This document shows positions 36,647 through 64,000 of a stretch of 64,000 nucleotides of DNA, piece after piece. The DNA comes from a phage. The position numbers were made by a program, and so were the translations under genes. The stretch lies in the sequence record PZ019085.1; one strand, given 5' to 3'. Below the pieces are notes generated by a model. The model had not been told where the DNA came from and searched no databases. It saw nothing but the letters and a program-made list of their open reading frames with translations. How positions within the stretch are numbered: position 1 is the first letter of the stretch; the number at the start of each line of letters is the position of its first letter.

Positions 36647-37282
36647 ATGAAAACTACACCAATCACTATCGCTATTGACGCAATCGTAAAACAAGCTTCA
36701 TCTCTTGCCACTATGGCTAAAGTAATTAGTCAAAACCCTGCCCGATATAATGCTATTCTTGAAACTCTTCGTCGCCCTGGACTGAGTAATTATGAAAGCC
36801 GAGTAATTATTACAGGTGTTGGTAAGAATGCTAATATTGCAACTAAAGCTTCTGAGACATTTGCTTCATTAGGTATTCCTAGCATGTATTTGAACACTGG
36901 GCATTATTCTCATGGTGACGCAGGATTTATTGCACCTAATGATGTATTAGTTCACATCAGTCGTTCTGGTAAGACTGAAGAAATGATAGGTGTTGCTAAA
37001 CATCTTCGTATGATTCGTCCTCAGGTTAAACAGATTCTGTTACATTGTAACCCTGACATTCCACAAGAATACGAAGCTCTTTTTGATTATACGTTCTGTA
37101 CCGGTATCGCGGTAGAAGTTGACGAGAACTCTTTAGCTCCGACGATGTCTACTACATTGTTGTTAGCGCTTATCGATACGTTCGCTATCAACCTTTCATC
37201 TGAACGTGGATTTACCTCTAATGATTTCCTTAAGTTCCATCCAGGCGGTGCACTAGGTGCCATGTTACGAGGCGAGCAATGA
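36647..37282 (+). CDS. SIS-domain sugar-phosphate isomerase (KdsD/GutQ/GmhA-like)
   Basis: ITGVGKNANIATKASETFASLGIPSMYLNTG...HGD...VLVHISRSGKTEEM matches the SIS-domain pattern of arabinose-5-phosphate or phosphoheptose isomerases; no CBS domain. Confidence 0.8.
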   Translation: MKTTPITIAIDAIVKQASSLATMAKVISQNPARYNAILETLRRPGLSNYESRVIITGVGKNANIATKASETFASLGIPSMYLNTGHYSHGDAGFIAPNDVLVHISRSGKTEEMIGVAKHLRMIRPQVKQILLHCNPDIPQEYEALFDYTFCTGIAVEVDENSLAPTMSTTLLLALIDTFAINLSSERGFTSNDFLKFHPGGALGAMLRGEQ

Positions 37283-37422
37283 AAGCAATAACAATAGGAC
37301 TTTTACTATTGATGCTTGTCATGACTATCTATTGGAGCTTAACGGCTCCAGTAATGATTCCAACACTTGTAATTGGATGGATTATGATTGGACTACAAGC
37401 AAAGTATGAATGCTTTAACTAG
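37279..37422 (+). CDS. Possible 47-aa two-TM membrane peptide
   Basis: MKAITIGLLLLMLVMTIYWSLTAPVMIPTLVIGWIMIGLQAKYECFN; ATGA-type overlap with the SIS gene stop. Confidence 0.3.
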   Translation: MKAITIGLLLLMLVMTIYWSLTAPVMIPTLVIGWIMIGLQAKYECFN

Positions 37423-37463
37423 AATAGTGTACAATACTCCTACTTACCAATGAGGACCACAAC

Positions 37464-39149
37464 ATGAAAAAAGCTGTTATTCTTGGTGCTGGACTGGCAA
37501 CTCGTTTGTATCCAATAACGCATCATATTCCTAAGGTGCTTGTTAACTATAAACAAGACACTATTCTGAGCAATTTGTATACAATTTATTCTGACCTTGG
37601 CGCAGATGAAATTATTGTAGTAGTTCATTCAAAATTTGCTGAAACTGTTCGAGCTTATTGTGAGCAAGAAGGGTTCAATGTGACTATTCGTACAGTTGAT
37701 GAAGCATACGGATCTGCTTATGCTCTTGCTAAATTACACAAAGATTTAGACGGCCATAATGTAATTGTTAACTGGTGCGATATTATTCCTGATTTTGGTT
37801 CATGGTCTTGGAATGTTAACGCAATCTATGTTAAGGGTGACGAATGTCGGTATAATTTCGACGGTGAAAATATCACTAACGTAGGTTCAACAGGTGGTAA
37901 TGTTGTAGGAATTTATCAGTTCAAAGACTGGGAATTCTATATGGGTTCTACCGATGAGGAAATTCATGAATACTGCAAAGGACGTGATTTCGTAGAATTC
38001 CTTTACAGCGGCGCATTCAATAAATCAGAGCTTATGAATATAATTGATTTAGGTGATATGCCTAAACTTGAAAAAGCTCATGAAGTTCGTGAACTTAATC
38101 GTAGTTTTAATGCAGTTGAAATTGGTGAAGAAACTGTAACTAAATTCGCATTAACCGAACAGGGCCGAGCTCTTCAGAAAGATGAGATTTCATGGTATCT
38201 TAAAGTGAAATCAGATTCAGTTCCTCAGTTAGTTTCTGTTAATGAAAATAACTTTGAAATGGAACGCATTAAAGGTAAGCCGGCATTTGAATATATTAAA
38301 TCCAAATCAAGTCTTGCTCGTCCACAAATTGTTGATGCAATTTTAGATGCACTGAAATTCAGCACAGACACTTATTTTGTAAGTCCTGAAACTGTTCGTC
38401 GTGATTTCACTAAAGAATTCTATACGAAAGTTATTGATCGTTGTGAAAGTATTCAACCATTGATTGATTCATTTGGTAAAATCACACATGTGAACTACAC
38501 TAAGATTGGACGTCTGAAGCCAATGCTGAAACAAGCTTTAGAACACCTTATTCGTTATCATAACCGTTCTCAGGGACAGTACTCTGTTATTCATGGTGAC
38601 CCTAACTTCAGTAATACTATGATTACTGATAACGGCGAAGTCAAGTTTATCGACCCTCGTGGATATTTTGGTGAAACCAAGATTTACGGGCCAAAATTGT
38701 ATGACGAAGCTAAAGTGCTTTATGCTGTTTCAGGTTATGATGAATTCAATGCTAATCCGACCTGGGGACAGTTTACTATTGATGAAACAACTTGTAATGT
38801 GACTATTAACATCAATCCATTAATTTACAAATATGGAAAGATGAGTTCGTTTAACGAGTATCATCATTTGGCGGTGGCAATTATCTGGATTGCATTGGGT
38901 GGTTATTTCAAGAATAATCCACTTAAAGCGGTAGCCGCATATTATAAAGGTATGGAACTTCTGACTAAGCAATTACGTAACATGGGCCGTGTACTTCAGG
39001 ACGGCTCTATTAGTTATGACGTAGCAGAACCTGTAACGGCTACTCTGATTACAAAAAATCCTGGTAAATGGGTACTAACTGATAAAGAAACTGGTGTTTC
39101 TTATCGTCCAATCGGTGGCGATATCACTCATCAATGGGAACGAATCTAA
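37464..39149 (+). CDS. Bifunctional sugar-1-phosphate nucleotidylyltransferase / APH-like sugar kinase
   Basis: N-terminal ILGAGLATRL (RmlA/GlmU-type NTP-transferase G-x-G-T-R motif); C-terminal HGDPNFSNTMI ... FIDPRG (phosphotransferase/choline-kinase-like catalytic loop). Confidence 0.75.
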   Translation: MKKAVILGAGLATRLYPITHHIPKVLVNYKQDTILSNLYTIYSDLGADEIIVVVHSKFAETVRAYCEQEGFNVTIRTVDEAYGSAYALAKLHKDLDGHNVIVNWCDIIPDFGSWSWNVNAIYVKGDECRYNFDGENITNVGSTGGNVVGIYQFKDWEFYMGSTDEEIHEYCKGRDFVEFLYSGAFNKSELMNIIDLGDMPKLEKAHEVRELNRSFNAVEIGEETVTKFALTEQGRALQKDEISWYLKVKSDSVPQLVSVNENNFEMERIKGKPAFEYIKSKSSLARPQIVDAILDALKFSTDTYFVSPETVRRDFTKEFYTKVIDRCESIQPLIDSFGKITHVNYTKIGRLKPMLKQALEHLIRYHNRSQGQYSVIHGDPNFSNTMITDNGEVKFIDPRGYFGETKIYGPKLYDEAKVLYAVSGYDEFNANPTWGQFTIDETTCNVTININPLIYKYGKMSSFNEYHHLAVAIIWIALGGYFKNNPLKAVAAYYKGMELLTKQLRNMGRVLQDGSISYDVAEPVTATLITKNPGKWVLTDKETGVSYRPIGGDITHQWERI

Positions 39150-39535
39150 TGCATCGTGTAGAAAACATGCTTAATCTTTGTTTTGATGTCGACGATTGTA
39201 TAACAGAGTGGAATAACAATCGTGATTACGTGAACTTCAAGCCAGACGTCGAAATGGTGTCTGCCATTAATGCCCTGTATGATGCAGGGCATACCATAAC
39301 GCTTTACACTGCTCGTGGTATGAAGTCAGTAGGTCCTGGTCGTATAGCAATTGACATTCTCCCAAGTCTGATTCAGAACTTGGCAAACATTGGCTTGAAG
39401 TACCATAATTTGCTAACACATAAACCAGTATATGATTGGATTATCGACGACAAAGCTATGCGTCCCGACGAATTCAAAGCTCTTATGAATAAAGGCGAAT
39501 TCGAAACATTTAAATCATATAAACCGAATCTATAA
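39149..39535 (+). CDS. HAD-superfamily phosphatase-like protein
   Basis: FDVDDCIT near the N-terminus, TARG, WIIDDKA; size typical of KdsC/GmhB-type small HAD phosphatases. Confidence 0.55.
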   Translation: MHRVENMLNLCFDVDDCITEWNNNRDYVNFKPDVEMVSAINALYDAGHTITLYTARGMKSVGPGRIAIDILPSLIQNLANIGLKYHNLLTHKPVYDWIIDDKAMRPDEFKALMNKGEFETFKSYKPNL

Positions 39536-39589
39536 TAATTTAAGTAAGACCTGCAAAAACCATCGCATAAATTAACGCGAGATGCAAAA

Positions 39590-40750
39590 ATGAATACTTT
39601 TAAAATCGGAACGAATTTTGATTTAGCTCTTCTTGATAAAATCGTAGAGCTCAATAAAACTTATCCTAATAGCTTGATAAACGAAGTATACGGCTCTACA
39701 AGAGAAATGGCTTTTGTAGCAGCCAGACCTGATTTTAGGCTTCCTGACGTTGACAAAAAGATGTTAGAAGATTACGTTAAACGTTGTAATGAATTAGGTA
39801 TTTGCTTTAACTATACACTCAACACGATAAATCCCGGTTCAAAAAGAGAACTAGTTGAGTGGAAGAAGAAAGCTATTCAGGATTATGTTCAGTATCTTTG
39901 GTCAATAGGCGTATGGCGTATTACTATCGCTAACCCTGTTGTTATGGAAATTGTTCGTGAAGTCAATAAAGACATTGAGATTGAAGTTTCAACAATTCTA
40001 CATGTCGATGCTGTAACTCAAATCAAATACTTACATGACCAATACAATATCAAAAAGGTCTGCTGTGGAATTCATAAGAACCGTTCAGTTTCTTTCCTGA
40101 AGCGTGCAGCAGAGTTTTGCAATAAGAACAATATAATATTTGAAGTTCTTGTAAATGAGTTCTGTTCTAATGCTGGTAAAGGGTATACAACACATTGTAG
40201 CTATCGTGACTCTTGCTATATTTTCCATAGTACTGATGTTACAGCTGATGATGCTAAATCCTTAAACGGGTATCCAATGCAACACTGCATTAAAGCTCGT
40301 GATACAGACCCATTTAACTGGTTGAGAACTCGTTTTGTTCGTCCTCAAGATTTGAAACTTTATAATGATATTGGTATCACTCAATTCAAAGTTTCAGGAC
40401 GTACAGGTAGCACAGACTACATTTTGAAAGTTCTTGAAGCATACGCTTCTGAAAAGTTTGAAGGTAATTTGTTAGAACTGTGGAAGCCTTTAGAGACTAT
40501 TTTCACTCTTGAAAACGAAACTGAGTTTTCACATACAGTAAATATTGAAACCTCTTTGTTAGATGGCTTTTTAGAAAAAAGGTGGTTCAGGCATCCAGAT
40601 TTCGATTGTGCTAATGAAATCTGTGGGACGACGTGTACATATTGTGAAAGATATTATAAACGTCAGTTATCTAAAAACGGGTTAGCAGAAAACTCTATAT
40701 CTATTATTGATATAACTAACTCTGATGACGCTTTGAGGTACCCAGAATGA
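39590..40750 (+). CDS. Cys-rich hypothetical enzyme in the sugar island
   Basis: 386 aa with multiple conserved-looking Cys clusters (CANEICGTTCTYC, EFCSNAGKGYTTHCSY); fold not assignable by eye. Confidence 0.55.
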   Translation: MNTFKIGTNFDLALLDKIVELNKTYPNSLINEVYGSTREMAFVAARPDFRLPDVDKKMLEDYVKRCNELGICFNYTLNTINPGSKRELVEWKKKAIQDYVQYLWSIGVWRITIANPVVMEIVREVNKDIEIEVSTILHVDAVTQIKYLHDQYNIKKVCCGIHKNRSVSFLKRAAEFCNKNNIIFEVLVNEFCSNAGKGYTTHCSYRDSCYIFHSTDVTADDAKSLNGYPMQHCIKARDTDPFNWLRTRFVRPQDLKLYNDIGITQFKVSGRTGSTDYILKVLEAYASEKFEGNLLELWKPLETIFTLENETEFSHTVNIETSLLDGFLEKRWFRHPDFDCANEICGTTCTYCERYYKRQLSKNGLAENSISIIDITNSDDALRYPE

Positions 40751-41030
40751 TTTCTAGAAAAACTTTTAACCACCAACTTAATGAAGAGATTTTGACTATG
40801 AAACTGAACACTAACGAACAAATTCTTAAAAAGGCCCTTATGGGGGCCTGTTTGAAACCAAAGCGGCTAAAGTGATTAAAGAACCTGTTCAATTGGAATA
40901 CTACGCTGATGCATTTCTTCATAGTGTTCTTGGAAGTATCGATGCTGAAGCTTTACGGTATATCAACACTGCCAAGAAATTCAAATAAGCTTTACGAATC
41001 GAGTATATAATAAATTGTATTGAGGTAAAC

Positions 41031-41747
41031 ATGGGAAAACATAACACAATGAAATATATCAAAGCCGCAGATTTTCAAACCGCATTTAAAGCAGTCAATC
41101 GTGAAATTTTAGAAAACCCGGAATTCGTAACTGATTCTCGTATTGGACGTTGTAATGAAATTGGGTCTATGACAGTAGTTGTTGACACTCCATCGTCATT
41201 CAAAATGACCGACCCACGTATTAACCGCATCTCTTATGAATATGCCGAAGACTTCTGGAAGTTTATGATTTCTGGTGGTACTGATGCAGAAGAAGCGTTT
41301 AAGGCATATCCTAATGTCGCTAAATTTATTTCTAAACCAAAATCGGATGCTTTGCCTGCAAACTTCAACACTTTCTATGGTCCTCGCATTGCGGCCCAAT
41401 TACCAACTCTTCTAAAAGAACTTAAAGAGAAACCTAACTCTCGAAGAGTTGTGTTCCAAATTCTAGAAAGTTCAGATCAGGCTTTGCTTGATTCGGACGA
41501 AACACTTGAATATCCATGTACTGACTCAGTGACTTATTATATTCGTGATGGTAAGCTTTATACCCACTGTCATATGCGTTCTCAGAACTGTGCTGTTGTT
41601 ATGCAGTTGGATTTTTATCTCCAAGGAAAATTACTTCATTATATCGCTAACGAATGCGGTGTAGAAGTAGGTGATTATACTCATACCATGGTAAGTGCCC
41701 ATGTGTTTGAACGTGATTTTGATTATGTTAAAGGATTCCTTGACTAA
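41031..41747 (+). CDS. 42: dCMP hydroxymethylase (thymidylate-synthase superfamily)
   Basis: PCTDSVTYYIRDGK ... MRSQNCAV resembles the catalytic Cys region of T4 gp42; syntenic position. Confidence 0.75.
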   Translation: MGKHNTMKYIKAADFQTAFKAVNREILENPEFVTDSRIGRCNEIGSMTVVVDTPSSFKMTDPRINRISYEYAEDFWKFMISGGTDAEEAFKAYPNVAKFISKPKSDALPANFNTFYGPRIAAQLPTLLKELKEKPNSRRVVFQILESSDQALLDSDETLEYPCTDSVTYYIRDGKLYTHCHMRSQNCAVVMQLDFYLQGKLLHYIANECGVEVGDYTHTMVSAHVFERDFDYVKGFLD

Positions 41748-42646
41748 TGGCTATTTTCCGCGTACCTATCTTGAGTATGCGGTCTTATGAAACTGGTCAG
41801 TATGCTATCCTTAAGGATGGCAACTTCCAACTTCATTTGCACCGTGCTAATCCAGGCGATGTGATTACATATCCACGTAATGCATCTGATATTAAAGAAT
41901 GTGAACGTCTTTTCCCGGAATTTAAGTTTGTTCCATTATGGTATAAAGATAACGCGTATAACACTCGTAAATATTTCTGGTCTGAAAATGAATTTGTGGT
42001 TGATTCATTAATTGCTTATTATGATTGTGATTTTCTAATCACAGATATCACTGGATATGATGGCGCTTTTGACGTAGAATTCAATTTCAATATCACTGCA
42101 GACCCTAATAAACCACGTTTTTATATTGATGAATTCTTAAAAACCGACATGTTGTCTGTTAATCGTTCACTTCAAACTACTGTGTTGAATGAACGTCAAA
42201 AAGAAGTGCTGGTTAACGCAGGTGCAGATGGTAATAAGATTATCGTAACGCAGAAAGTTATACGTCCTTCCGTCATGCAGCGTCTTGTAGGTGATTTGGC
42301 TCCTATTCATCTAGATGGTATTTTTCATCCATTTCGAATTAGTGACCCATGCTATCGTTTTGAACAAGTTGTTGAATGCGCAATTCAATTAGGTCAACCG
42401 CTTTATATAACTGATCCAAATAATAGTTTCGACAGAAATAAGTATCCTGAAGAAGCGCTGATTCGAATTTTTAATCCAACTAAAACTGAGTACTATCAAA
42501 TTCTTAAAGGACGTCCGAAGATTCAATATTTCGAAAATCCTGAAGAAGTATTCCATCCAGGTCTTGGTGAGTTCATCTACTTTAATGCTTTAATTTCTTC
42601 ACCGTATAATATACCTAAATACGAAGATGTCGTAATCGAGGAATAA
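41747..42646 (+). CDS. Hypothetical protein at the position of T4 beta-glucosyltransferase
   Basis: 299 aa; no match to T4 beta-gt noticed. Confidence 0.55.
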   Translation: MAIFRVPILSMRSYETGQYAILKDGNFQLHLHRANPGDVITYPRNASDIKECERLFPEFKFVPLWYKDNAYNTRKYFWSENEFVVDSLIAYYDCDFLITDITGYDGAFDVEFNFNITADPNKPRFYIDEFLKTDMLSVNRSLQTTVLNERQKEVLVNAGADGNKIIVTQKVIRPSVMQRLVGDLAPIHLDGIFHPFRISDPCYRFEQVVECAIQLGQPLYITDPNNSFDRNKYPEEALIRIFNPTKTEYYQILKGRPKIQYFENPEEVFHPGLGEFIYFNALISSPYNIPKYEDVVIEE

Positions 42647-42647
42647 A

Positions 42648-43196
42648 ATGGCTAAAATTATTTTAGTAGACGGCCCGGATAATGCTGGTAAAACAACTTT
42701 CATTAATGACATAATGGAAATTAGTGAAAGATATGTAAAGATTGATTTCCCTAAACGAACAGTTGATGGACGTTTCGATGTTAAGTCTCGAAATGAAGTT
42801 GGCTGTTTCGAAACGATGTTGAATTATTTAGACCCTACTAAGATTTATCTGTTAGACCGTGGATATATTAGTAACTGGGTTTATGGACGTATTCGACAAG
42901 ATGTGGACTCGGTTCTTGACGTTTATGAACAGGATTATGTTCGTCTTTGCCAAAACCATGATGTGTTCACAATTATTTTAACACGTAACGAAATGACTGA
43001 AAGTTTTGAAGACGACCTTATTACTTTGTCTTCATTCGGTTTTAATACAGTCATTTCATATTTTGAAGAGTTTGCAATTCATAACAAAATCCAAACGTAT
43101 CAATTACTTAATCATGATGGTGCTAACAAAGTTATAGGATTTAATGCAAGCGAACGTAATTATTTGATTACAGAAATCATTAAATGGGCTCGTTAA
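42648..43196 (+). CDS. P-loop nucleotide kinase (thymidylate/dNMP kinase-like)
   Basis: Walker A DGPDNAGKTT and LLDRGYIS (DRY-like motif of the TMPK fold). Confidence 0.55.
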   Translation: MAKIILVDGPDNAGKTTFINDIMEISERYVKIDFPKRTVDGRFDVKSRNEVGCFETMLNYLDPTKIYLLDRGYISNWVYGRIRQDVDSVLDVYEQDYVRLCQNHDVFTIILTRNEMTESFEDDLITLSSFGFNTVISYFEEFAIHNKIQTYQLLNHDGANKVIGFNASERNYLITEIIKWAR

Positions 43197-58317: not shown

Positions 58318-58812
58318 ATGAATATCAATACTACGGCTACTTACATCCTGAAAGACGAAAAACAAATCAACTGGTACGGTGCTTCAGTGCGAGCTTATGA
58401 AAAGTTTTGTGAAATTTTAGGTGCCACTCAAGGTAATAGTTTCACTATTGTTAACTTCATCAAACAAGCTGAAGGTCCTTGGTTATTCTTAGAAATTAAA
58501 AATTCATACGGTACAATTTCTACTACCGCCCTTCCAAGCACCGACTTTGAACTGTTGATTGAAGAAGCACCTGTTAAAGATGGTCTCCACTTTGATATGG
58601 ACATCGCTTGTATGTACGGTACTCTGATTAAGCCTATTGAGCCTACTGATTTGTTGTGTAAAGCCGTTTCAATTCGACGTCCGTTCGCAGGTCCAGTGAG
58701 TGGATGGGTAACTGACCAGTGGATTGAAGATGGTGTTGAACTTCTGAACGTAGTTCATGCAGGTGATTTTAGTGTAGTTCCTCGTAGTGCTGTGGTTAAT
58801 ATTCTTAATTAA
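58318..58812 (+). CDS. Hypothetical protein, member of a tandem paralog triplet
   Basis: C-terminal motif GWVTDQWIEDGVELLNVVHAGDFSVV shared with the next two genes. Confidence 0.55.
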   Translation: MNINTTATYILKDEKQINWYGASVRAYEKFCEILGATQGNSFTIVNFIKQAEGPWLFLEIKNSYGTISTTALPSTDFELLIEEAPVKDGLHFDMDIACMYGTLIKPIEPTDLLCKAVSIRRPFAGPVSGWVTDQWIEDGVELLNVVHAGDFSVVPRSAVVNILN

Positions 58813-58874
58813 TGTTTTACATCCAAGGATGGATGGAGTATAATGAATTCAACTTAAACAAAGAGAGAAAAAAT

Positions 58875-59330
58875 ATGATTAATATTGGTGAAATTAAACG
58901 TGTATCAACAGTGTCTCGTTCTAAAGCTGCAGGAAAGCTGGTTGAAGTAGTAGGACTTCGTACTAATGGCATGGGTCGTATTAAAGAAGTTAAAGTTCGA
59001 ATCATCCCCAGTTTTGGCGGACAAGATGCCCAGTATGCTTACGTAAGTCCTAAATTCCTGGAAACTCATGTGAGTGCTCATTTTGCTTCTACTGAACCTA
59101 ATGTACAGTTCAAATGGACCTTGTGTAAAGGTGTTGAATTCCAGACTGATAAAGAATTTGACTTCATCGATGAATACGGTTATCCAAGCAAAACTGATAT
59201 TATGTGTGGCTTCATTAGTGACCAATGGGTTGAAGATGGTGAAAAGTTATACAATATCGTATTCTTAGGTGACTTCCGAGTTGTTAAAGAATCTGAAATC
59301 ACTCGCTATGTGTCTCCTCGTAAAGCTTAA
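58875..59330 (+). CDS. Hypothetical protein, member of a tandem paralog triplet
   Basis: SRSKAAGKLVEV ... GFISDQWVEDGEKLYNIVFLGDFRVV. Confidence 0.55.
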   Translation: MINIGEIKRVSTVSRSKAAGKLVEVVGLRTNGMGRIKEVKVRIIPSFGGQDAQYAYVSPKFLETHVSAHFASTEPNVQFKWTLCKGVEFQTDKEFDFIDEYGYPSKTDIMCGFISDQWVEDGEKLYNIVFLGDFRVVKESEITRYVSPRKA

Positions 59331-59339
59331 GGAATTATT

Positions 59340-59759
59340 ATGAATATTGCAAATCTCTCTATTGGTGATTATGTACACGTATCAGATGCTTCTCGCTCTA
59401 AAGTTGCTGGTAAGTTGGTCGAAGTTCTTTCTGTGAGTGATCCGGTTTTTGGACGTAACGAAGTTAAAGTTCGTGACGCTGATGGTAACATTGGTTACGT
59501 TAAAAGCCAATTCATCGAGCCAGAAGAACGCGCGTTCAAATGGAAACTGTGCAGATCGGTTTTAGTTGTAAAAGACCACGAGTTCACCATTGCTGCGGCA
59601 ACAGATGGAACACCGTGGACAACGAATCAAGTTGCTGGTTTTATTTCGGACCAATGGGTAGAAGATGGTGTTAAGCTTTATAACATCGTTTTCGCTGGAC
59701 AGTTCATAGTAGTTCCTGAGTTCCAAATCAAAAAATATTGTCCAGCATCTTTTGCATAA
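59340..59759 (+). CDS. Hypothetical protein, member of a tandem paralog triplet
   Basis: SRSKVAGKLVEV ... GFISDQWVEDGVKLYNIVFAGQFIVV. Confidence 0.55.
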   Translation: MNIANLSIGDYVHVSDASRSKVAGKLVEVLSVSDPVFGRNEVKVRDADGNIGYVKSQFIEPEERAFKWKLCRSVLVVKDHEFTIAAATDGTPWTTNQVAGFISDQWVEDGVKLYNIVFAGQFIVVPEFQIKKYCPASFA

Positions 59760-61732: not shown

Positions 61733-63550
61733 ATGATTAAAAATGAAATTAAGGTATTGTCAGATGTAGAACATATTAAGAAACGTAGTGGTATGTATAT
61801 TGGTTCTTCGGCCAAAGAAGCACATGAGCGTTTTTTGTTCGGTAAATATCAACAAGTTGAATATGTTCCTGGTCTGGTTAAATTAATCGATGAGATTATT
61901 GACAACTCGGTTGATGAAGCTATTCGTACATCATTTAAGTTTGCAAATAAAATTGATGTGCAAATTAAAAATAATCAAGTTTCGGTGGAAGATAACGGAC
62001 GTGGTATTCCTCAAGGTTTAGTTACCGACCAAACAGGTGAACAAATTCCTGGGCCTGTAGCAGCCTGGACTATTCCAAAGGCCGGTGGTAACTTTGGTGA
62101 TGACTCTGAACGCAAGACCGGTGGTATGAACGGCGTCGGGAGTAGTTTAACCAATATCTTCTCTACGTTGTTTACAGGCATTACGTCAGATGGCGAAAAT
62201 GAAATCACTGTTAACTGTTCAAATGGAATGGAAAACAAATCATGGTCTTCTAAGAAATCTAAAGGTAAAGGCACTAAAGTAATCTTCACTCCTGATTTCA
62301 CTTCATTTGAAGAGCATAATTTATCTCAAATTTATTTAGATATTACTTTAGACCGACTTCAAACATTGGCAGTCGTTTATCCTGATATCAAGTTCACATT
62401 TAATGGTAAAAAGGTTGATGGTAATTTTAAACGATTTGCTAAACAATTTGGTGAAGATAACATCATTCAAGAAAATGATAAAGTCTCTATAGCATTCACA
62501 ACATCACCAGATGGCTTCCGTCATTTAACTTATGTGAATAACATCCATACTAAAAACGGCGGTCATCATGTTGAATGTGTAATGGATGATATCTGCGAAC
62601 ATCTTTTGCCTGGTATCAAAAAGAAATATAAGGGTATTGAAGTCACTAAAGCTCGTGTTAAAGAATGCCTCACAATGTTGATGTTTATTAGAGACATGAG
62701 CAACATGCGTTTTGATTCTCAGACTAAAGAACGTTTAACGTCAACGTACGGTGATATTCGTAATCATATCCAATTAGATGCTAAGAAAATTGCTCAGGCA
62801 CTTCTTAAAAACGAAGCCTTGATTATGCCTATTGTTGAAGCAGCATTAGCTCGTAAATTGGCGGCAGAAAAGGCTGCAGAAACTAAAGCGGCTAAAAAGG
62901 CAACTAAAGCTAAGGTTCATAAGCATATTAAAGCTAACCAATGTGGTAAAGATGCAGATACGACATTGTTCTTAACAGAAGGTGATTCGGCAATTGGTTA
63001 TCTCATTGATGTTCGTGACCGTGAACTACATGGTGGATTCCCATTACGTGGTAAGGTGATGAATAGCTGGGGTATGTCATATGCTGATATGATGAAGAAC
63101 AAAGAGCTCTTTGATATCTGTGCTATCACAGGTCTTATTCTTGGTGAAAAGGCAGAGAATACGAACTATCGTAATATTGCAATTATGACCGATGCCGATC
63201 ATGACGGTCTTGGAAGTATCTATCCGGCTTTGCTTGCTTTCTTTAGTAATTGGCCTGAATTGTTTGAACAAGGACGTATTCGCTTTGTTAAAACGCCTGT
63301 AATTATTGCACAAATTGGCAAAACTCAAAAATGGTTTTATACTGTAGCTGAGTATGAAGAAGTTAAAGATACACTGCCTAAGCATAGTATTCGATACATC
63401 AAGGGATTAGGCTCCCTTGAAAAGTCAGAATATCGTGAAATGATTCAGAACCCTGTGTACGACGTAGTTAAACTTCCTGAAAATTGGAAAGAACTCTTTG
63501 AAATGTTGATGGGTGACGATTCAGAACTTCGTAAAGAATGGATGTCCTAA
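61733..63550 (+). CDS. 39: Type II DNA topoisomerase ATPase/Toprim subunit (gp39, uninterrupted)
   Basis: GHKL ATPase motifs (IDNSVDEA, GRGIP, GGMNGVG) and Toprim (LTEGDSA); single 605-aa ORF. Confidence 0.9.
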   Translation: MIKNEIKVLSDVEHIKKRSGMYIGSSAKEAHERFLFGKYQQVEYVPGLVKLIDEIIDNSVDEAIRTSFKFANKIDVQIKNNQVSVEDNGRGIPQGLVTDQTGEQIPGPVAAWTIPKAGGNFGDDSERKTGGMNGVGSSLTNIFSTLFTGITSDGENEITVNCSNGMENKSWSSKKSKGKGTKVIFTPDFTSFEEHNLSQIYLDITLDRLQTLAVVYPDIKFTFNGKKVDGNFKRFAKQFGEDNIIQENDKVSIAFTTSPDGFRHLTYVNNIHTKNGGHHVECVMDDICEHLLPGIKKKYKGIEVTKARVKECLTMLMFIRDMSNMRFDSQTKERLTSTYGDIRNHIQLDAKKIAQALLKNEALIMPIVEAALARKLAAEKAAETKAAKKATKAKVHKHIKANQCGKDADTTLFLTEGDSAIGYLIDVRDRELHGGFPLRGKVMNSWGMSYADMMKNKELFDICAITGLILGEKAENTNYRNIAIMTDADHDGLGSIYPALLAFFSNWPELFEQGRIRFVKTPVIIAQIGKTQKWFYTVAEYEEVKDTLPKHSIRYIKGLGSLEKSEYREMIQNPVYDVVKLPENWKELFEMLMGDDSELRKEWMS

Positions 63551-63575
63551 GCTCCTTCGGGAGCTTCATTTTAAT
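63550..63575 (+). terminator. Terminator-like UUCG hairpin after gene 39
   Basis: agctcc-ttcg-ggagct followed by a U-rich tract. Confidence 0.5.
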
Positions 63576-63592
63576 TTTAATAAGGCTTAATT

Positions 63593-64000
63593 ATGAAAGT
63601 TATGTTTATCCCATCTCGTGCAGTCCCATTTAATCCTGACCGTGTACAAGGTGGTCTTGAGGCAGTACATTTAAATGTGTTGAAATATCTTGTGTCCATC
63701 GGTGCTGATATTGATTATATCGGCTTTGATAATGACACGTTTGGTGACTGGAAAGTTACACACCATCCTGTTGGTCATCTGACTAAATTCAGTCTAGGTA
63801 TGAGTTATACTATGGCCCGTAAGATTGTTGAACTAGCCGGCATCCATGAATACGATTTTGTTGTTACTATGGAACCGACTAAACTAACCGTTCAGGCAAT
63901 TAAAGACGCAGGTCTCTCTAAAGTTCATAAGAATTTTATGGCTACGCCGTTTGAACCGGTGTCTCGTGGTATTGTTCAAATTTGGGATCAGACTATCCAG
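63593..64000 (+). CDS. Glycosyltransferase, GT-B/GT4-like (3' partial, runs off the window)
   Basis: MKVMFIPSRAVPFNPDRVQGGLEAVHLNVLKYLVSIGADIDYIGF resembles the GT4 N-terminal domain; ATG 63593 after aagg; no stop within the window. Confidence 0.55.
   Translation, partial: MKVMFIPSRAVPFNPDRVQGGLEAVHLNVLKYLVSIGADIDYIGFDNDTFGDWKVTHHPVGHLTKFSLGMSYTMARKIVELAGIHEYDFVVTMEPTKLTVQAIKDAGLSKVHKNFMATPFEPVSRGIVQIWDQTIQ

Follow-up and report, generated by a model that had tools for sequence, protein, structure and literature searches.

Several phages carry arabinosylated cytosine in their DNA. In RB69, the cytosine is replaced by mono- and di-arabinosylated 5-hydroxycytosine (5hoC), in which the sugar is linked through an ether bond at C5, as determined by NMR and MS (Lee et al. 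2026, PMC13326640). The same arabinosylated base was found independently in the Mosigvirus NP, and the older assignment as 5-hydroxymethylcytosine (hmC) was termed erroneous (PMC13390438). The ratio of mono- to di-arabinosylated base in phage NP is approximately 1:4, and the di form dominates Mosigvirus DNA. The number of arabinoses per base varies between phages, with one in Thanatos, one and two in RB69 and NP, and three in DLP3 (PMC13326640, PMC13390438). RB69 gp48 was shown to convert dCMP to 5-hydroxy-dCMP (Lee et al. 2026, PMC13326640). For the subsequent glycosylation, the two 2026 papers put forward successive steps, the first by the glycosyltransferase (GT) of the sugar island and the second by the product of the gene located between rIIA and the topoisomerase (PMC13326640, PMC13390438). 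In Lee et al. 2026, the initial step is given to RB69 gp46:47 and the formation of the di-arabinosyl product to gp3, both explicitly as hypotheses (PMC13326640). Biochemical work within the family of the second enzyme is limited to DLP3 gp76 and gp77, which jointly add the third arabinose to arabinosylated RB69 DNA from UDP-arabinofuranose (UDP-Araf). Product was formed only with both proteins, and no single GT was active on DNA containing 5hoC only (PMC13326640).

The DNA described here is a stretch of 64,000 nucleotides (PZ019085.1), referred to below as the window. By megablast its genus match is Mosigvirus, the RB69-like T-even phages. The final 1.2 kb of the window match Escherichia phage AlbertHofmann (Bas47), PTK, and KMB38 at 98.6% identity (megablast), and the final 24 kb are 97.1% identical to Bas47. 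The features relevant to cytosine arabinosylation are the following:

36647-37282, + strand: arabinose-5-phosphate isomerase (SIS domain), first step towards UDP-arabinose; 96.7% identical to RB69 gp55 (PMC13326640)
37464-39149, + strand: bifunctional sugar kinase/nucleotidyltransferase (RB69 gp52:53, HY126 AfhE-like), makes UDP-arabinofuranose; Pfam NTP_transferase and weak kinase matches, 98-99% identical to RB69 gp53/gp52 (PMC13326640)
39134-39535, + strand: small HAD-like phosphatase (RB69 gp51, AfhF-like); 99.2% identical to RB69 gp51, function from PMC13326640
39590-40750, + strand: Peptidase_U32-like protein (RB69 gp50), by Pfam and comparison with RB69
41031-41747, + strand: thymidylate-synthase homolog, 5-hydroxy-dCMP synthase; Pfam Thymidylat_synt, 237 of 238 residues identical to RB69 gp48
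41747-42646, + strand: island GT-B glycosyltransferase of 299 aa (RB69 gp46:47), between the gene-42 homolog and uvsX
42648-43196, + strand: nucleotide (thymidylate-like) kinase (RB69 gp45), last island gene before uvsX; 97.8% identical to RB69 gp45, which is annotated as thymidylate kinase
61733-63550, + strand: gene 39, type II topoisomerase large subunit, a single ORF of 605 aa, so annotated in Bas47
63549-63566, + strand: GC hairpin and T-run resembling a terminator, between the gene-39 stop and the GT start
63593-64000, + strand: 5' part of the distal GT-B/GT4-like gene for a probable DNA arabinosyltransferase, codons 1-136 of 366

The sugar island spans positions 36647-43196, and its ORFs are 96.7-99.6% identical to RB69 gp55 through gp45. 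The phosphatase ORF at 39134-39535 had no match in Pfam. The Peptidase_U32-like gene is kept in the islands of Mosigvirus and Serratia phage 92A1, and is absent from the island of Acinetobacter phage DLP1.

The acceptor base follows from the thymidylate-synthase homolog. As this protein differs from RB69 gp48 at one residue only, its product is assigned as 5-hydroxy-dCMP and not hydroxymethyl-dCMP. It is also near-identical to the PDB entries 9iqc, 9ir2, and 9iqu. Judged from its sequence, labelling 41031-41747 as 'dCMP hydroxymethylase' or as gene 42 would be wrong. The base assignment rests on the identity to gp48 and not on an alignment with ThyA. A pairwise MAFFT alignment with E. coli ThyA puts A at D169. 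If the conserved R-S pair is taken as the anchor, D169 corresponds to N and N177 to D (motif RSQN...D), and this would fit the published signature of 5-hydroxy-dCMP synthases.

These results bear on the first-pass annotation, in which the distal gene was named as the best candidate for moving the island's NDP-sugar onto hmC. Its enzyme class and pathway were retained; the base has to be changed to 5hoC on account of the gp48 identity, and the island's own GT had been overlooked. A transfer of the island sugar to 5-hydroxymethylcytosine, comparable to glucose transfer by the α- and β-glucosyltransferases of T4, was the original view of RB69 DNA in 2018 (ara-hmC) and persists in the annotation of Bas47. 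It can barely be credited here, given an almost unchanged 5-hydroxy-dCMP-forming enzyme, the direct C5 ether link seen by NMR and MS in RB69 and NP (PMC13326640, PMC13390438), and a Pfam search that returned no T4 glucosyltransferase family. The T4 enzymes are likewise phage GT-B proteins that transfer a UDP-sugar onto a modified cytosine after replication, and HHpred similarity to 1XV5 was reported by Thomas 2018. However, they differ from the distal GT in sugar (glucose versus arabinofuranose), in acceptor (hmC versus 5hoC or arabinosyl-5hoC), and in genome position, and the relation is at the level of the fold only.

The distal gene is located approximately 20 kb from the sugar island, at the very end of the window. 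An ATG at 63593 opens 136 stop-free codons that reach the last base, as found by an ORF scan, which agrees with the window-truncated ORF at 63593-64000 reported in the first pass. The remaining 230 residues lie beyond the window. On the opposite strand, the sole ORF is one of 40 codons at 63577-63699. In the 5' to 3' direction, the hairpin with its T-run is followed by an AAGG motif and the start codon of the GT, and the records of phages PhAPEC2 and G2469 have a 'terminator' feature annotated at the same spot. A scan for sigma-70-type promoters immediately upstream of the GT gave no convincing match. Gene 39 is one ORF of 605 aa, and thus the large topoisomerase subunit is unsplit, unlike in T4, where it is divided between genes 39 and 60. 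The distal GT fills the interval between gene 39 and rIIA, which in T4 is the place of gene 60 and its neighbours. Elsewhere on the + strand, three tandem paralogous ORFs are present at 58318-58812, 58812-59330, and 59340-59759, encoding proteins of 164, 172, and 139 aa with 29-32% identity. They share the C-terminal motif G(F/W)(I/V)(S/T)DQW(V/I)EDG..L.N(I/V)V..G.F.VV and correspond to hypothetical proteins of Bas47 between dexA and the cef/goF-like genes.

The complete distal protein can be read from relatives. The fragment is identical to the N-terminus of Bas47 QXV75110.1 (bas47_0105), an ortholog of 366 aa. Downstream of it in Bas47 lie an ORF of 66 aa, rIIA, and rIIB. Together with gene 39 upstream in the window, this gives the position typical of the family in Mosigvirus, and the same location between gene 39 and rIIA is stated in PMC13390438. 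The Bas47 protein shares 97.8% identity with RB69 ORF003c (gp3, NP_861693.1; tblastn), the closely related P0002 matches the HY126 chain at 98% identity, and the 136 residues of the fragment are all identical to residues 4-139 of PDB chain 9iqz. By homology, the protein belongs to the family comprising RB69 ORF003c, the HY126 GT, and phrog_8302 (fragment against phrog_8302, E = 6e-75). With the Bas47 protein as the tblastn query, approximately 156 phage records contain a homolog at 95% identity or above. In the word-indexed protein search, the fragment as query gave only a piece of 79 aa, and the search was rerun with the full-length Bas47 sequence. RB69 ORF003c/gp3, the HY126 GT (9iqz, 9ir0), and Bas47 QXV75110.1 are the same protein of 366 aa at the same position, and no difference from this set is detectable across the 136 visible residues of the distal GT. 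Furthermore, the gene co-occurs in the window with the 5-hydroxy-dCMP synthase and the UDP-arabinose island.

In Bas47, bas47_0105 is annotated as 'putative hmC-arabinosyltransferase'. The distal enzyme is probably the 'Aat' of Bas46 and Bas47, as suggested by this annotation and by the abstract of Mahler et al. 2025, which reportedly defines Aat as an 'arabinose-5ara-hC transferase' that adds further arabinoses. In another study, which cites Mahler et al. 2025, Bas46 lacking the arabinosyltransferase Aat is reported to be viable and to become susceptible to a plasmid-borne defence (PMC13216743).

Family models do not recognise the distal protein as a glycosyltransferase. Pfam, including the Glycos_transf_1 and Glyco_trans_4 models, returned no families for the fragment (E <= 10) or the full-length protein (E <= 0.01), NCBIfam returned none for the full-length protein, and PHROGs returned only phrog_8302 and other families of 'unknown function'. 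A family profile searched against the PDB matched chain 9iqz_H (also entry 9ir0) with E = 4e-188. The molecule in 9iqz is named 'Glycosyltransferase subfamily 4-like N-terminal domain-containing protein', and the two entries, released on 2025-07-16, are entitled 'phage HY126 glycosyltransferase' (9iqz, the apo form) and 'phage HY126 glycosyltransferase with UDP' (9ir0). UDP binding by the distal enzyme follows from the latter title. An AlphaFold (AF2) model of the full-length protein, built from an alignment of five sequences, was poor (pLDDT 58), and the assignment of the GT-B fold therefore rests on the deposited structure and the literature. A Foldseek search with this model gave 9ir0_A and 9iqz_A as top matches, both at 98% identity, followed by the GT-B/GT4 enzymes PimA, tll1591, BshA, WaaG, PglA, and B. 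anthracis BA1558 with E values from 1e-8 to 1e-5. Two Rossmann-like domains with a nucleotide-sugar site in the cleft between them, the hallmark of GT-B, are present in 9iqz/9ir0. The distal protein is a soluble GT-B, GT4-like enzyme binding a UDP-sugar. The GT-B/GT4-like N-terminus that had been recognised by eye was correctly read, as borne out by the complete identity to 9iqz and the GT4 matches, and a full-length protein devoid of a GT fold, which would have spoken against it, is not what the solved structure shows.

G20-G21 is invariant across the distal family, as are E276, E281, and a '..EAIS.G.P' stretch. Counting back eight residues from E281 leads to G273, and by eye the canonical first Glu of the E-x7-E motif seems to be missing. 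The bacterial GT4 enzymes PimA, BshA, WaaG, PglA, and tll1591 share the overall GT-B architecture with the distal GT, and apparently also the N-terminal Gly-rich loop (G20-G21) and the C-terminal '..EA..xGxPV' nucleotide-sugar motif. They are its best non-phage Foldseek matches, yet share only 10-15% identity with it, and the distal acceptor would be DNA. Since these nearest non-phage relatives include GTs acting on lipids and LPS, such as PimA and WaaG, and the distal gene sits apart from the island, an acceptor other than DNA could be considered, namely a component of the host envelope or a phage protein, with no connection to DNA modification. Such a role is very improbable: the Acinetobacter homologs lie within an arabinosylation island and act on DNA in vitro, and the family is seen only in phages bearing the island.

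The window encodes two GT-B enzymes, as the island has its own GT in addition to the distal one. The island ORF of 299 aa had no match in Pfam, NCBIfam, or PDB sequence searches. Its AlphaFold model, built from an alignment of 48 sequences, is confident (pLDDT 94.8, pTM 0.89) and has a GT-B fold. No sequence similarity was found between the island and the distal GT. T4 keeps its β-gt in the same interval as the island GT, between gene 42 and uvsX (PMC6024577). Compared with the distal GT, the island GT (RB69 gp46:47, DLP3 gp79, Thanatos ara-GT) is shorter, far more widespread, adjacent to the 5-hydroxy-dCMP synthase, and the proposed maker of the bond between base and sugar. It is the probable base-proximal, first arabinosyltransferase.

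The distribution of the two enzymes differs markedly. The island GT was found in 349 phage records. These span many genera, with hosts such as Escherichia, Acinetobacter, Klebsiella, Serratia, Enterobacter, Proteus, Yersinia, Edwardsiella, Pectobacterium, Shewanella, and others, and they include Shewanella phage Thanatos-1, which is mono-arabinosylated. For the distal family the number is only 212 phage records (tblastn), comprising Mosigvirus with one copy, Acinetobacter phages with two adjacent copies, and one Tegunavirus. Among 5.8 billion proteins, the distal family forms 5 clusters versus at least 138 for the island GT, and the distal family has 16 matches among 1.8 billion representatives. 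The island GT is present in every examined phage with a 5-hydroxy-dCMP synthase and the island. The distal family is confined to phages with the island, and tblastn (E <= 1e-3) found it absent from most of those carrying the synthase and the island, including Thanatos-1, which carries the island-type GT only. Serratia phage 92A1 has the island and no distal-family gene within the 21-kb locus, and was left out of the comparison of copy number with sugar number.

In Acinetobacter phage DLP1 (L002, 9001-11296), the two adjacent paralogs ADLP1_075 and ADLP1_074 are 43% and 40% identical to the distal GT over the full length. The pair sits inside the island, directly past the kinase. One of the two paralogs is annotated as 'putative DNA alpha-glucosyltransferase', which is a probable misnomer because of the arabinosylation chemistry. 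By gene order, DLP3 gp76 and gp77 are presumed to be the counterparts of this pair. Read from ADLP1_075 and ADLP1_074, DLP3 gp77 and gp76 belong to the same family as the distal GT and likewise operate in an arabinosylation system for 5-hydroxycytosine. The arrangement differs: the Acinetobacter phages have two tandem copies within the island, which in DLP3 make a third arabinose, whereas Mosigvirus has one copy approximately 20 kb from the island and stops at two. Accordingly, the number of arabinoses is one in Thanatos with no copy of the distal family, two in RB69 or NP with one copy, and three in DLP3 with two copies, a correlation drawn from three lineages.

The tracking of copy number with sugar number, together with the 5hoC base and the presence of an island GT, makes a second arabinosyltransferase the most likely role of the distal enzyme. 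We consider it moderately likely that it extends the chain on DNA, using UDP-Araf as the donor.

The main alternative is the reverse order of action, in which the distal enzyme is the primary base-arabinosyltransferase and the island GT acts second or serves another purpose. The distal enzyme would then use UDP-Araf to place arabinofuranose on the 5-hydroxyl of 5-hydroxycytosine itself, which amounts to the first-pass proposal with the base changed. In Bas47, the distal gene is the only one annotated as an arabinosyltransferase. Furthermore, the HY126 ortholog of the distal GT, and not the island GT, is the protein that He et al. 2026 reportedly crystallised, and it was deposited simply as 'phage HY126 glycosyltransferase', with no number. 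The unnumbered name may mean that action on 5hoC DNA was shown. ORF003c was also singled out as the arabinosyltransferase by Thomas et al. 2018, but that proposal predates the recognition of gp46:47 as a GT: the RB69 record has gp46:47 broken by a frameshift, and the authors were unaware of it because a sequencing error had split the gene. A primary role is unlikely in view of the phages with an island and no distal-family gene, among them the mono-arabinosylated Thanatos-1, in which the island GT is always retained. In addition, the DLP3 homologs extend an existing arabinose and are inactive on 5hoC DNA, and the two 2026 papers place the distal enzyme second.

The DLP3 result allows a further reading, as its paralogs were productive only together and no single GT was active. 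By analogy, the distal GT might be inactive alone and work only in a complex with the unrelated island GT, so that the roles of the two could not be separated. The many chains of 9iqz, of which chain H is one, are compatible with oligomers. However, the one family copy of Mosigvirus lies 20 kb away from the island GT, downstream of a terminator-like hairpin, and the two GTs lack sequence similarity to each other, which makes an obligate pair quite improbable. If true, base-proximal and distal arabinosylation would be coupled by a heteromeric GT machine encoded 20 kb apart, although this would still be a detail of an already described pathway.

For the chain-extending role, the following sequence of steps can be proposed. 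The thymidylate-synthase homolog of the island would hydroxylate dCMP to 5-hydroxy-dCMP, the nucleotide used in place of dC in the DNA, as shown elsewhere. The island enzymes would produce UDP-arabinofuranose from ribulose-5-phosphate, as shown for the HY126 homologs. The island GT-B at 41747-42646 may then attach the first arabinose to the 5-hydroxyl, and the distal enzyme may add a second arabinofuranose from UDP-Araf to the first, yielding di-arabinosylated cytosine. The longer glycan would alter the range of host defences able to attack the DNA.

The distal gene has been described before. Its RB69 version was put forward as the arabinosyltransferase in 2018, and the gene has since been annotated in the BASEL phages, its product crystallised, and the gene reportedly deleted in Bas46. 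At least three papers of 2025-2026 deal with it. The outcome for the present sequence is a corrected annotation, with 5-hydroxycytosine instead of hmC, two GTs instead of one, and a distal GT that is probably chain-extending. Arabinosylated cytosine protects these phage genomes from DNA-targeting CRISPR systems, from the Brig1 glycosylase, and from restriction enzymes. The number of arabinoses affects which of the defences still work, and is thus relevant to phage therapy and phage engineering.
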